Source: a virus (taxonomy: Duplodnaviria; Caudoviricetes). From it: DNA of 36,392 nt. This document shows, one piece after another, positions 17,948 through 31,574 of this stretch; the stretch's first letter is position 1, and the number at the start of each line of letters is the position of its first letter. The notes beneath the pieces were generated by a model. That model had not been told where the DNA came from, ran no database searches, and saw only the letters and a list, made by a program, of their open reading frames with translations. The DNA is taken from IMG/VR virus record IMGVR_UViG_3300005611_000089, positions 1 through 36,392 of that record, one strand, 5' to 3'. Both the position numbers and the translations under genes were made by a program.

Positions 17948-18163
17948 TTAAGCCCCTTTACCATCTGTTAGTTCACTATCATCAATATCCCATGCAGGCC
18001 TAAAGTCTCTATTAGCTGGAAGGTCTGAAATATCCACTATCTTATAAGGAAGTCCTGTAGGAACATCCTTAGCGGCTATCTGTTCTATAGTTAGGTTGCA
18101 TTTATGTGACGGGTGTATAACACATAGTCCACCATCATTCTTGTATATAATTACTTTGCTCAT
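17948..18163 (-). CDS. Tail-fibre-associated small protein
   Basis: IAAKDVPTGLPYKIVDISDLPANRDFRPAW motif, recalled from genes that follow fibres in aquatic phages. Confidence 0.65.
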   Translation of the reverse strand: MSKVIIYKNDGGLCVIHPSHKCNLTIEQIAAKDVPTGLPYKIVDISDLPANRDFRPAWDIDDSELTDGKGA

Positions 18164-18164
18164 T

Positions 18165-19262
18165 TTAATTTCCCCCATGAACCACTACACATATTATAGC
18201 ATTGTCTGCACTACCTATAGCTGCATTAGTACTCAATACCCTAACATTTGAGGTGCTTGTGGAACTTACCTGTAAGATAAGACCATTACCACCTGTAGTA
18301 CACATACCAGATACAGCATAGTTTGCATCGTTCAAAGTATTGGTAAAGTTAACTGTGTAATTACCTGCCCCGTTATCAGTGATGCTAGTTACATTATAGC
18401 TATCTCTTATAGCTACAGTTCCTGTACCGTTGAAGTTAACCCAAGCTGAGGCTAGCTGGTCTGGCTCGTCTTCAACAAACTCTAGCGCGGTGGCACCTGA
18501 ATTCACCTTAACACTATAACCACCTGATGATGTATAGTTGGCTGGTGTATCTGTTAAGCCTGTGAATGTGTCAATTGCTGCTGGTGCATTGACGAACTCT
18601 AAACCTGTCTCACCGCCGTTGACCGCCACATACTTACCTGACTGACCAGTGAATGTACTGCTTGTAACATCTGGTAGGTTTATGTAAGAGATATCTAGCG
18701 TGGTACGAGTGGTTGCTGCATCTGTGTCATCTAAGTAGGTCTTAGCAAAATCACTCACGTCTAGAGTGCCTAACCCTTCAAGGTTGGTATTCTCTAAGTT
18801 GCCATCTGATTTCCACCGTAGGAACTTCCCAGTCTCTGCAACTGGTACAGTTAGGCCATTAGAAGTCTGAGACTCGGACAGCTTCAAGGAGCGGTCAAGC
18901 TCTTCTTGTTGCTGCTGGGTAATCATTGTTAGTTTGTCAAGGGCTTCCTCATGACTCTCTGCTGGGAATGCATCATTCTCTACGTAGTCCGTACCCTGAG
19001 TTAGGGGGATGTCACGCTTGATTGTAAGCGTGTTACCACTTGGAGGAGCCACAAGCATTGTAACTGTGCCACCCGCGTCTAGGCCTGCGCCTGTCAACGT
19101 GTAGTTGGTTGTCTCGGCTTGTACTGTCTCAACTCCAGTGGAGTCCACCGTCAAGATAACCTTGATGTGTGAATTCTCTAGGAAGCGGAAGCCAGTAGCA
19201 AAGGCGGTGGTAGAGCCATTGCCTGCATAATCACTTCTTTTAGTCTCTGATGATACCGTCAT
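18165..19262 (-). CDS. Tail fibre protein
   Basis: T7 gp17-like N-terminal anchor (YAGNGSTTAF...DYVENDAFPAESHEEALDKLTM), two internal repeats ending LEFV, C-terminal AWVNFNGTG...SYNVTSITDNGAGNYTVNF domain. Confidence 0.88.
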   Translation of the reverse strand: MTVSSETKRSDYAGNGSTTAFATGFRFLENSHIKVILTVDSTGVETVQAETTNYTLTGAGLDAGGTVTMLVAPPSGNTLTIKRDIPLTQGTDYVENDAFPAESHEEALDKLTMITQQQQEELDRSLKLSESQTSNGLTVPVAETGKFLRWKSDGNLENTNLEGLGTLDVSDFAKTYLDDTDAATTRTTLDISYINLPDVTSSTFTGQSGKYVAVNGGETGLEFVNAPAAIDTFTGLTDTPANYTSSGGYSVKVNSGATALEFVEDEPDQLASAWVNFNGTGTVAIRDSYNVTSITDNGAGNYTVNFTNTLNDANYAVSGMCTTGGNGLILQVSSTSTSNVRVLSTNAAIGSADNAIICVVVHGGN

Positions 19263-29559: not shown

Positions 29560-29600
29560 TATTTATATCCTGTGTAGTTAAACAAAATGTTTTAAGGTTT

Positions 29601-29716
29601 GCCTAGCTTTAGGATTGTCAGTCGCCTGATCCCTACACTAGAAGATATTCATTCAAGTTAAGGTTCAGGCCACGTAGTGGTTATCTGAGGTAGTAGCTAG
29701 TATTTCGCTACAAGGC
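29601..29716 (-). promoter_or_regulatory. Structured 5' leader of the major capsid mRNA
   Basis: Hairpins at 29665-29688 and 29611-29633, each with a YAA bulge; the second has a GCGA tetraloop. Confidence 0.65.
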
Positions 29717-29719
29717 TTC

Positions 29720-29748
29720 AATATAAAGGCTGGTCTTACCAGTGTCAA
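29720..29748 (-). promoter_or_regulatory. Sigma70 promoter for the capsid gene
   Basis: TTGACA (29748-29743), 17-nt spacer, TATATT (29725-29720); upstream A-tract. Confidence 0.8.
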
Positions 29749-29760
29749 CACTTTTTTACA

Positions 29761-30110
29761 GATGGTAGGTTATTTTAGACATAGTGGTCATTTAGACCTT
29801 TGGTGGTAAATGGATTACCTGACAAAGTTCTTTCACTGTGTTCTATGTGTACTCGATATGCAGAACTGTATTTCTCTTCCTGTCAAGAAGGGTAACCAGA
29901 GCCATCTGATAGTTGGTAGCTATCGGCTGTTATACTGGGTTTACCACCATCACCTGCTTTATCCTCGGTCTCAAAGTTGTTACACATAGCAGCTTGTTAC
30001 TTGTTGTCCTCGTATAAGTCTTAGTAAGCTATGTAAGACTCCAGTGACTAGCACCTTGAAAAGCTTGTTCCTGACTAAAAGCTACGAGACAATTAGCCAG
30101 TACCTACATT
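29761..30110. ncRNA. Candidate large structured non-coding RNA of unknown class
   Basis: No ORF of 60 aa or more; many nested inverted repeats including a perfect 10-bp long-range pair 29801-29810 / 29940-29949. Confidence 0.55.
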
Positions 30111-30135
30111 ATAGACTATAATTGAGGTATAGCAA
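30094..30135. promoter_or_regulatory. Palindrome ATTATAG-A-CTATAAT supplying a -10 on both strands
   Basis: Plus: TAGCCA (30094-30099), 17 nt, TATAAT (30117-30122). Minus: TTGCTA (30135-30130), 16 nt, TATAAT (30113-30108). Confidence 0.5.
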
Positions 30136-30152
30136 AAACAGGGGACAGGGTT

Positions 30153-30389
30153 ATGAAGCAATGGATGAAGGAAATAAAATACTTTTTAGTGGAAAGATTC
30201 ATCGGCACTGCCCGTTGGTATCAGATAGAGTGTGAACAGCCACACCGTAACCCTGACAACTTTGAAATCAAATGTAAGATGGTTAACCCCAACGTTGCTG
30301 TGATGGATATGGAATCCTTCCGTAAGAGTAAGGTAGTTAAGGAACAATGCGAGGCAGCCCTTAGAATAGTAGAGAGACAAAACAAATGA
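30153..30389 (+). CDS. Hypothetical protein, 78 aa, coupled to the HigA-like gene
   Basis: ATGA overlap with 30386; opposite strand to the head module. Confidence 0.65.
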   Translation: MKQWMKEIKYFLVERFIGTARWYQIECEQPHRNPDNFEIKCKMVNPNVAVMDMESFRKSKVVKEQCEAALRIVERQNK

Positions 30390-30694
30390 ATTATGAATAT
30401 GCACAATCCCCCGCTGAGTTACTGAAGGAAGTAATGGATGACCTCATCTTGGATGTGTGGGAATTATCGGAGATGTCAGGGATACCTGCTGAAGAGTTAG
30501 AGGCAATCCTGCAAGACAGGCAAGCAGTAACTCTTGACGATGCATTGTTGTTAGAGCTGGCTATTGGAGTTCCTTTTGAGCAGTGGCTTGACCTTGAGGA
30601 AGCATACCAGAAAGTATTATCTAACCTGTCCGAGGATGAGATTAACAGAGCACTGGACAACTCTCACCTACGCTCAATCAAGAAGTACCACTAA
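30386..30694 (+). CDS. HigA-family antitoxin-like HTH protein, unusually acidic
   Basis: SPAELLKE...ELSEMSGIP...AILQDRQAVTLDDALLLELAIGVPFEQWLDLEEAYQ follows the HigA pattern (P.E.L.E...LA..LG.....II.G...IT...AL.L....G.....WLNLQ..Y). Confidence 0.75.
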   Translation: MNYEYAQSPAELLKEVMDDLILDVWELSEMSGIPAEELEAILQDRQAVTLDDALLLELAIGVPFEQWLDLEEAYQKVLSNLSEDEINRALDNSHLRSIKKYH

Positions 30695-30737: not shown

Positions 30738-31574
30738 TTATTCTGGGAACTGTAACTTAAATAACTCTTGAACCTGCCTGTTAATGGCTTTGTGTTCTGG
30801 GTGGTTACGGTTGGTGTATGCAGGATTAGCCATAAGCTGTGCTTGTTTATCCTGTAGCTGTGCTGGTGTTAAGGCCATCTCTGCACCTTTACCTTCCAAC
30901 TTGCCAGACTCCATCATACCTTTACCAATGCTTGACATAAGCTTAACAATCGCTGGGTGGTCACCTAGGGCAACGTTACCGACGAGTGTATTCTTAAGGA
31001 AGTCCATTGTGCTTTCATCTGCAAACTCACCTACTGCACGCTTGTAGATTTCAACGTTCTGGTCGTAAGCATTACCCCATTCTTTCTTAAGACCATCTAA
31101 GGCTTCCTGTGTGGACTGCTCGAACGTTTTGTTTAGGTTCTCCATAGATTCCTGTGTAGAAGAGAAATCGAACTCAGCGAGCGCCTCAGCTTGTTTTTGA
31201 GATAGTCCTATACTGTGGGCCAACTCTAGGAACTTACCTTGGCGAGCTTCATCTACTTCCACACCTTCTGGAGCTTTAATCTCATAACCGGTAGGCTCTT
31301 CTGGTCTGCCTAACTTGGCATACGTGTTAGCCCAGTCATCTTCTGTTACCGGCATGGGAATTTTATCTGCACCGATTAGGTGCTGAACATTGATGTAGCT
31401 CTTTGCCAACTCTTCTGCACTGTTAAACTTAGTGATGTTCTGGTTTTCGCGGATGTCCTCTGCGAACACATCATACCATGCACCGTTGTCTGTTGCAGGC
31501 TGTGCTACACTCTCTGCCGGTGCTCCACCATCTACTGGCTCATCGTTCATGATTCTTTCATTAAGCTTAAACAT
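30738..31574 (-). CDS. Capsid scaffolding protein
   Basis: ELAKSY..., KLGRPEEPTGY, GLSQKQA, LKKEWG.AYD, LGDHPAIVK, HPEHK; lies between portal and capsid. Confidence 0.88.
   Translation of the reverse strand: MFKLNERIMNDEPVDGGAPAESVAQPATDNGAWYDVFAEDIRENQNITKFNSAEELAKSYINVQHLIGADKIPMPVTEDDWANTYAKLGRPEEPTGYEIKAPEGVEVDEARQGKFLELAHSIGLSQKQAEALAEFDFSSTQESMENLNKTFEQSTQEALDGLKKEWGNAYDQNVEIYKRAVGEFADESTMDFLKNTLVGNVALGDHPAIVKLMSSIGKGMMESGKLEGKGAEMALTPAQLQDKQAQLMANPAYTNRNHPEHKAINRQVQELFKLQFPE

Follow-up and report, generated by a model that had tools for sequence, protein, structure and literature searches.

RNAC and RNAD are located in the tRNA region of phage T4. In the accessible part of PMC9697503 both are described as small phage RNAs whose function is unknown. 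GOLLD and ROOL are phage RNAs with multiple pseudoknots which sometimes occur beside tRNA genes and, according to the available sections of PMC12286853, have no known function or protein partner. HDV-like ribozymes have a nested double pseudoknot, with an unpaired catalytic C opening the joiner before the last helix (PMC10879173, in the portion available). In ColIb-P9 a loop sequence pairs with a partner that is otherwise held in a downstream hairpin near the start codon (PMC4705826, accessible part).

The locus considered here carries one copy of a real phage RNA family, apparently not described before, whose double pseudoknot is unusual and switch-like. The family is strongly co-varying, and was missed both by single-sequence folding and by Rfam. 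No paper describing it was found in the literature searched, most subscription journals being outside that coverage. The phage RNA candidates in the available part of PMC10690425 are of 29–151 nt, too short to include the complete RNA, though a piece could be there; in its supplement, three motifs of the RNA were not found in files 3, 5 and 6 and six contig ids were not in file 4. The cluster database of bioRxiv 10.64898/2026.10.21.760802, to judge from the part of that preprint at hand, could include the family.

Genomic setting

The window, meaning the whole stretch of DNA analysed, is a complete virus record of 36,392 bases with terminal repeats. It is a podovirus genome with genes for primase-helicase, family A polymerase, portal, scaffold-like protein and capsid, the last about 54% identical to Pelagibacter phage HTVC010P-type capsids. 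The element sits in a 593-base gap between the capsid gene start (29559, minus strand) and a pair of plus-strand ORFs, one of 78 aa with no family and one of 102 aa that is HTH antitoxin-like. The scaffold gene ends at 30738, farther up from the gap, and is followed by a terminator-like hairpin.

A preliminary description had proposed a structured RNA of about 350 nt at 29761-30110 in a stretch free of ORFs, and no ORF of at least 60 aa is indeed present there. There is a 59-aa plus-strand ORF at 29810-29989; this antisense ORF is not conserved, the longest stop-free run being 31–41 codons in seven of eight other members and 68 in one. An uncatalogued multi-helix phage RNA is supported at this place, encoded on the minus strand. 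The window contains no tRNA or tmRNA gene by ARAGORN (0 genes).

A putative sigma-70 promoter for the RNA lies at 30108..30135 on the minus strand (10/12 consensus matches), and a separate strong sigma-70-like promoter for the capsid gene, also on the minus strand, at 29720..29748 (11/12), between the RNA and the next gene; these calls were made by consensus match alone, four sites being found versus 2.7 +/- 1.7 in shuffles. A divergent plus-strand promoter-like site (30094-30122) and a 14-bp palindrome (30101-30129) overlap the putative RNA promoter. Within 30094-30694 the divergent promoter-like sites and the palindrome precede the 78-aa ORF and the antitoxin-like ORF; close relatives of the window keep the antitoxin-like gene and lack the 78-aa ORF.

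Two neighbouring features deserve mention in their own right. The capsid mRNA leader (29560-29715, minus strand) is kept with invariant blocks in loci L001-L003, and 120-nt segments across it fold at z about −2.9 on the minus strand, making it a candidate cis-regulatory element. At the scaffold-capsid junction of L002, the closest capsid relative, there are some 600 non-coding bases (L002:3250-3870) whose repeated, AT-rich palindromes resemble an origin by eye. Insertions seem to favour this junction, as at a hot spot.

Covariation and strand

Single-sequence folding gave little encouragement. The preliminary description had named folding no better than shuffles as grounds against its proposal, and folding of 29761-30110 was no better than that of shuffles (z −0.44 on the plus and −0.99 on the minus strand). 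No 120- or 200-nt segment wholly within the stretch reached z −1.3, and the mean z of 23 homolog cores is −0.8. Such scores proved uninformative and were set aside as evidence. Support comes from the homologs, and this comparative evidence rescues the element: the compensatory changes that were to be looked for among them are present, with helices A to D co-varying.

Helices A, B and C were scored for covariation in 21 main-class sequences as aligned by MAFFT, with no hand editing, helix A comprising 4 + 9 bp with a 4-nt bulge. Fifteen of the 23 pairs tested vary on both sides. Base pairing is possible in 92.8% of 471 cells, a level matched by 0/500 shuffles, and when the partner is slid by 1–3 columns just 29–36% of cells pair; since related sequences can beat shuffles, the slid control and the compensating changes in 9/9 pairs of A2 are the stronger points. 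Exchanging partners among 23 representatives gave 0/20000 permutations for each of A, B, C and D, in a test that ignores relatedness, with windows anchored by eye and the helix C anchor chosen for its pairing. A pattern in which A, B and D were not encoded returned seven matches out of sample, all of them members. The four representatives analysed keep A, B and D, foreign partners being as good in 0–1/23 cases for A and B and 0–5/23 for D.

On the window's minus strand there are 35 G-U cells versus one A-C cell (7 pairs versus 1). This excess settles the strand, which the preliminary description had left undecided, as minus, and favours RNA. The strand order, A-B-C-D-C'-A'-D'-B', is that of a nested double pseudoknot. 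On comparative evidence, the fold is conserved, strand-specific and doubly pseudoknotted, has duplicated partners and is independent of any one neighbour gene; that the structure is real is highly probable.

Parts of the RNA

The conserved structured core, defined by model R1 and the homologs, occupies 29772..29995 on the minus strand, to which all features below belong; at about 220 nt it is shorter than the 350 nt first proposed. Upstream of it is a 5′ leader (29995..30101) that contains what had been taken for a second domain (30004-30092). It folds at z −1.19, has no homolog alignment and is not common to homologs. A helix proposed to close the whole (29765-70/30102-07) lies past the −10 box of the minus-strand promoter and short of its expected start site, and for that reason is probably untranscribed.

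The 5′ strand of helix A (29981..29993) consists of A1 (29993-90) and A2 (29989-81), and 11 of the 13 pairs of the helix vary on both sides; the first pair of A1 is purine-pyrimidine in 21/21 sequences. Its 3′ strand (29835..29851), defined by covariation, comprises A2' (29851-43), the 4-nt bulge and A1' (29838-35). Between the two strands comes first a short hairpin, H (29963..29976), with strand B (29971-67) in its loop. Hairpin H is less firmly supported (199/20000 permutations; one of its three pairs varies on both sides). Next is an A-rich joiner, GAUAAA (29958..29963), whose G, A, A and A are found in 27/27 representatives, a conservation that is partly by construction as the joiner was the search anchor. 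The 5′ strand of helix C (29953..29957) pairs, in 98% of cells and with four of five pairs varying on both sides, with 29864-60; this 3′ strand and the conserved joiner after it (29859-52), which starts with AU in 26/27 representatives, together make up 29852..29864 and are likewise defined by covariation.

The swap tests indicate that the 5′ strand of helix D (29940..29949) can pair either locally with repeat 1 (29891..29897) or over a long range with repeat 2, which is D' (29801..29810, also seen by covariation). Pairing with repeat 2 gave 0/20000. Pairing with repeat 1 gave 2729/20000 at first, and passed, at 2/20000, only once the windows were re-anchored on hairpin E. The two repeats resemble each other at 7.1 nt within members versus 4.3 across members (0/20000; 14 main-class members). 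Between D and repeat 1 is a hairpin insert (29896..29938) whose length differs widely across relatives, and downstream of repeat 1 is hairpin E (29876..29890) with a conserved YGRCA-type loop that we take to be T-loop-like.

Strand B' (29794..29798) may pair with B, both-side changes being seen in diverged members, or with B2 (29823..29830), a second B-like strand with which local pairing is possible (1/20000). For B2:B', 90.5% of cells are paired, changes in the main class are of the wobble type only, with no both-side change there, and the pairing fails in L115, L319 and L352. The conserved 3′ tail (29772..29793) pairs with the 5′ flank across the family (2/20000 in tests that left out L104 and L319); this closing helix is weak in the window copy (−4.7 kcal/mol). 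A role for A' as a splice-type guide pairing with the tail was considered and rejected (10645/20000).

The nine complementary segment pairs from which a fold had been drawn up at the outset all exist where they were reported. In its first domain, 29794-98/29967-71 and 29801-10/29940-49 are kept by covariation and correspond to helices B and D, and its inner hairpin (29896-29938) occurs in the predicted fold, relatives carrying a variable hairpin at the same place. The helices 29826-31/29862-67, 29815-19/29891-95 and 29820-24/29881-85 are unsupported (pair probabilities 0.06, 0.07 and 0.02), their strands finding other partners in the comparative model. That first fold therefore fell short, with three of its helices failing and two main conserved ones, A and C, missed.

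Two predicted states

Both the D strand and B' have duplicated partners, repeats 1 and 2 for the former and a local one, B2, in addition to B for the latter. When the window copy is folded as a single sequence, A2 (0.85), C (0.60) and D paired to repeat 1 (0.44) are present and B (0.0) is not, which is the nested state. In the same copy the long-range pairing of D has an energy of −14.6 versus −9.3 kcal/mol for the local one, and that of B' −7.9 versus −5.7 kcal/mol, in a comparison of individual helices. Duplicated, co-varying partners, together with stronger long-range pairing, suggest that a nested precursor refolds into the knot, this two-state order being a prediction.

Local helices would form first, during synthesis. 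These are A, H and C, the pairing of D to repeat 1, hairpin E, and a hairpin at the 3′ side in which B2 pairs with B'. On completion of the 3′ end, repeat 2 would displace repeat 1 from D, and B' would leave B2 for loop B, the long-range helices being stronger by about 5 (D) and 2 (B') kcal/mol in the window copy. The end state reached by this strand displacement would be a locked double pseudoknot. Alternatively, part of the pairing redundancy could reflect a mobile three-way junction within one fold. With its two duplicated partners the RNA is a natural example of a fold that is apparently programmed to rearrange, and the predicted rearrangement lends itself to direct in vitro tests with a transcript of 200 nt.

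Distribution and neighbours

A distant BLAST search of the gap against annotated phages matched 10 Vibrio phage records, always in unannotated gaps, and a profile search widened the homology to about 290 bases on the minus strand (E 1e-9 to 7e-8). Vibrio phages 1.016, 1.074, 1.189, 1.039, 1.275, NF (two copies), Seahorse, H2, L3, jenny and K30 carry the element, as do Pseudoalteromonas phages HS1, HS5, HS2 and BS5; pattern scans contributed environmental phage contigs, and a plasmid search a 108-kb Moellerella plasmid with a phage methyltransferase gene. The element is intergenic in these otherwise unrelated phages, in the contigs and in the plasmid. The carriers are podo- and sipho-type phages whose hosts are marine Gammaproteobacteria, along with at least one enteric plasmid that has phage genes. 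In the main class, 59 loci yield 31 distinct cores, several of these loci repeating a contig already counted, and there are diverged forms besides. Cores are 162–332 nt long, and those of the 22 other representatives are 44–64% identical to that of the window.

Model R1, whose training set includes the window, finds one copy in the window genome (29772-30001). It recovers the most diverged members incompletely (L093, L289, L312, L313, L319, L352 and L354); these are counted as members by their joiner motif, by the pairing of their helices, and by links through BLAST or pattern matches. A loose pattern scan of viral contigs gave at least 120 loci, six of them true by profile. A pattern scan of bacterial genomes gave 26 matches and no members, and a model search, with no positive control, of 151 genomes sampled from one enterobacterial order gave 0 matches.

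In relatives about 94% identical to the window, from two oyster metagenome runs, the RNA region is retained and the 78-aa ORF is missing; one contig shows eight differences in 287 bases of that region. Among the 80 closest capsid loci the element was not found, the capsid leader of about 120 nt alone being common to L001-L003. That these closest capsid relatives lack the element implies that it moves independently of the head genes. Neither a tie to the scaffold-capsid junction nor the assembly role put forward at first is supported, homologs moreover occurring beside unrelated genes in other types of phage. An RNA antitoxin, also suggested, finds no linked toxin, and the oyster relatives retain the RNA with no 78-aa ORF next to it; types I and III were rejected given the lack of a constant neighbour gene, of a conserved antisense ORF and of tandem repeats, and the single copy.

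In most siphophage-type carriers the order is a promoter-like site, an RNA of about 130 nt with a long terminator-like hairpin, a tRNA or tRNA-like slot, one or two hairpins, the element and then a gene. A start codon is found 21–39 nt after B' in 32/47 loci, many of them near-duplicates, 54 nt after it in two, more than 80 nt in nine and not within 260 nt in three (L115, the remaining locus, is left out of these classes); in 12/47, then, the next co-oriented gene is more than 80 nt away or absent within 260 nt. The downstream genes are mutually unrelated and include HNH, T5orf172, phosphoesterases and small unknowns. The first is a DNA methyltransferase in 7/47 loci and Lar-like in 2/47, one of these below the Pfam cut-off. 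Among the 47 loci there is no constant neighbour gene and no protein partner co-occurs; 23 members share no conserved leader or upstream ORF, and no segment pairs with the downstream ribosome-binding site at a fixed place. In L352-L356 the RNA is near a helicase-like gene, labelled so from its sequence. Vibrio phage NF (L086 and L312, both MN812722) has two diverged copies, each directly before a phosphoesterase-type gene.

The element is directly behind tRNA genes in L089, L090, L096, L105 and L297, helix A starting about 65–70 nt past the last tRNA in L089 and L090, and L357 has an Rfam tRNA match upstream. Even so, most members have no tRNA nearby: one was found in 3/36 loci, four of the 36 being non-member loci. 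The window copy, with its own promoter-like site and a separate capsid promoter, L357, with a terminator-like hairpin immediately past the tail, and L359, with no co-oriented ORF of at least 35 aa within 400 nt, stand alone.

The same loci point to at least two further uncatalogued RNA classes. One, unrelated to the element, takes its place in three phages, H105/1 of Pseudoalteromonas (L315:850-1060) and 1.276 and 1.029 of Vibrio (L316:1050-1255 and L318:890-1105). Its 5′ hairpin loop appears paired to the 3′ end, it has several tetraloop hairpins and a common 8-base motif, and it matches neither Rfam nor model R1. The other is the RNA of about 130 nt right after the promoter (L082:1155-1275, L084:1305-1420, L086:1235-1375, L087:1270-1395, L312:700-820 and others). 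Its terminator-like hairpin is long, and its 5′ loop has a complement in an inner segment, the complementary letters differing by eye from phage to phage as in attenuator or immunity RNAs, and has no Rfam match. As an antisense regulator of the element this upstream RNA was rejected: in most of 12 loci, complementarity to the locus's own element did not exceed in length that to the elements of other loci. In Vibrio phage 1.064 (L317:930-1300) the slot holds another non-coding sequence of about 370 bases, not a member and with no Rfam match. Where Seahorse and H2 have true tRNAs, L086 (1370-1475), L125, L137, L200, L310, L312, L313 and L314 have tRNA-sized inserts closed by a conserved acceptor-like stem, in which ARAGORN calls none.

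Possible functions

The reading we prefer, tentatively and at rather less than even odds, is a stand-alone stable RNA that acts in trans as a counter-defence decoy. It would bind a host defence or RNA-binding protein, its paired ends and knot conferring nuclease resistance. The decoy role, the weakest step, is suggested by travel in accessory slots with methyltransferases, restriction-alleviation and antitoxin-like genes. The stand-alone contexts, the co-varying helix of 5′ flank and tail, the lack of fixed pairing to a ribosome-binding site and the tRNA-adjacent loci are in its favour. However, the 21–39 nt to the start codon in 32/47 loci would suit a role in cis equally well, and duplicated partners are more what one expects of a switch than of a static decoy.

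That spacing, kept despite unrelated genes downstream, also favours a translational switch in cis like the ColIb-P9 rep leader, to which we would give perhaps one chance in four. Loop B would capture B' from the 3′ hairpin about 30 nt before the start codon, and so would switch the accessory gene that follows on or off; the use of a loop, a sequestered partner and a pseudoknot formed at long range is as in ColIb-P9, and a test for duplex formation between the whole RNA and its own Shine Dalgarno sequence gave 15/20000. Nevertheless, the Shine Dalgarno sequence and start codon are outside the B2:B' hairpin, six segment-wise tests for anti-Shine Dalgarno pairing were negative with the best pairing sites scattered, no leader ORF is conserved, and there is no adjacent gene to be controlled at the window copy, in L357 or in L359.

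Somewhat less probable is a new self-cleaving or RNA-processing ribozyme, in the locked state of which A would correspond to P1, B to P2, C to P3 and D to P1.1. The nested precursor would delay a cut 5′ of helix A until the 3′ end had been made, and polycistronic small-RNA transcripts would be cut. The HDV-like strand order, which derives from covariation, the purine-pyrimidine first pair of A1 (21/21), the conserved A-rich joiners and the location behind tRNAs and other small RNAs are all consistent with it. Interchangeable ribozyme classes fill the same slot elsewhere, and an unrelated structured RNA does take the element's slot in L315, L316 and L318. Against it, the dimensions are far from those of HDV (D of 6–10 bp, long joiners, a loop of 60–230 nt), there are few invariant bases and no unpaired conserved C before B', the tRNA 3′ end is about 65–70 nt away in L089 and L090, and no Rfam ribozyme matched at E up to 1. 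A new natural ribozyme class of 160–330 nt with the HDV-type knot order and a different active site is a prospect of about the same probability. If true, its activation would be timed by a built-in double strand-displacement, its targets would be operons of phage small RNAs or the 5′ ends of mRNAs for accessory genes, and the second RNA class in the slot might do the same job.

A self-assembling structural RNA, in which duplicated strands swap between molecules to form dimers or rings as with GOLLD, ROOL and OLE, seems improbable. D' and B' could equally pair with D and B of a second molecule, and GOLLD and ROOL, often near tRNA islands, form RNA-only cages (PMC12286853, available sections); but the element is about a third to a quarter of their size, a self-complementary kissing loop was not found in it, and intramolecular closure is available. 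A single-stranded DNA signal, mobile or origin element is most improbable, for though occurrence is patchy among related phages, with a helicase gene near in L352-L356 and two DnaA-box-like motifs upstream in L354, there are 35 G-U cells versus one A-C cell on one strand, the orientation always follows the promoter or flanking operon where context is seen, and there is no transposase, terminal repeat or consistent target duplication.

Several of the carrier phages are in culture, and their hosts are harmless: Pseudoalteromonas phages HS1, HS2 and HS5 and those infecting Vibrio breoganii and V. natriegens. The HS2 copy lies at about 18000-18170 of KF302036. For PSA-HS2 there are infection transcriptomes (PMC7082346), in the accessible text of which a term search found no mention of non-coding RNA. 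With these carriers and transcriptomes, the long-open role of phage stable RNAs is open to attack here.

Relation to known systems

Against Rfam 15 the window gave no match at gathering level, with three weak matches far below it at E up to 10. Forty scans, run at E up to 1 on the loci of homologs and of neighbours, yielded tRNAs and weak sub-threshold matches only. Resemblances to twister, glmS, SAM-I, T-box, retron and kink-turn were set aside: the letters that match are not constant among members, and Rfam gave no match. The preliminary description saw no hallmarks of RNase P or group I/II introns, and tests for membership of both classes were negative. For introns there is no Rfam match, the catalytic core (P7 G-site; domain V) is not seen by eye in the alignment, and the test for a guide pairing of tail and A' was negative. 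The order of the 5′ half (end helix, long helix, hairpin, purine-rich joiner, two helices) resembles that of bacterial RNase P RNA. However, the P2/P4 knot is absent, C' preceding A' with C nested inside A, and while P4 is conserved in sequence, helix C varies in four of five pairs on both sides and has no Rfam match.

With HDV-like and theta ribozymes the element shares the nested double-pseudoknot strand order, as A B C D C' A' D' B', and these ribozymes likewise occur in phages near tRNAs. The inner helix and loops of the element are far larger. The joiner before B' is A-rich and variable and lacks the catalytic C, a nearby C being paired in helix D, and whereas theta cleaves within 5 nt of a tRNA 3′ end, helix A is some 65–70 nt from it in L089 and L090. 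With the rep switches of ColIb-P9, IncB and IncL/M the shared feature is capture by a loop of a sequestered partner, hairpin H being moderately supported. In those leaders the hairpin masks the Shine Dalgarno sequence and start codon, which is not so here, and a leader peptide ends at the partner sequence, one that the 23 members lack; nor is an antisense RNA promoter seen over loop B, and the downstream gene is not fixed.

T4 RNAC and RNAD, from T4-like myoviruses, are shorter than the element, the comparison being one of descriptions. GOLLD and ROOL, at about 600–800 nt versus about 160–330 nt, are longer, and no family model matches. The element differs from them also in its distinct four-helix knot with duplicated partners and in its hosts, so far Gammaproteobacteria; like them, it is a phage-encoded RNA with more than one pseudoknot, sometimes adjacent to tRNA genes.
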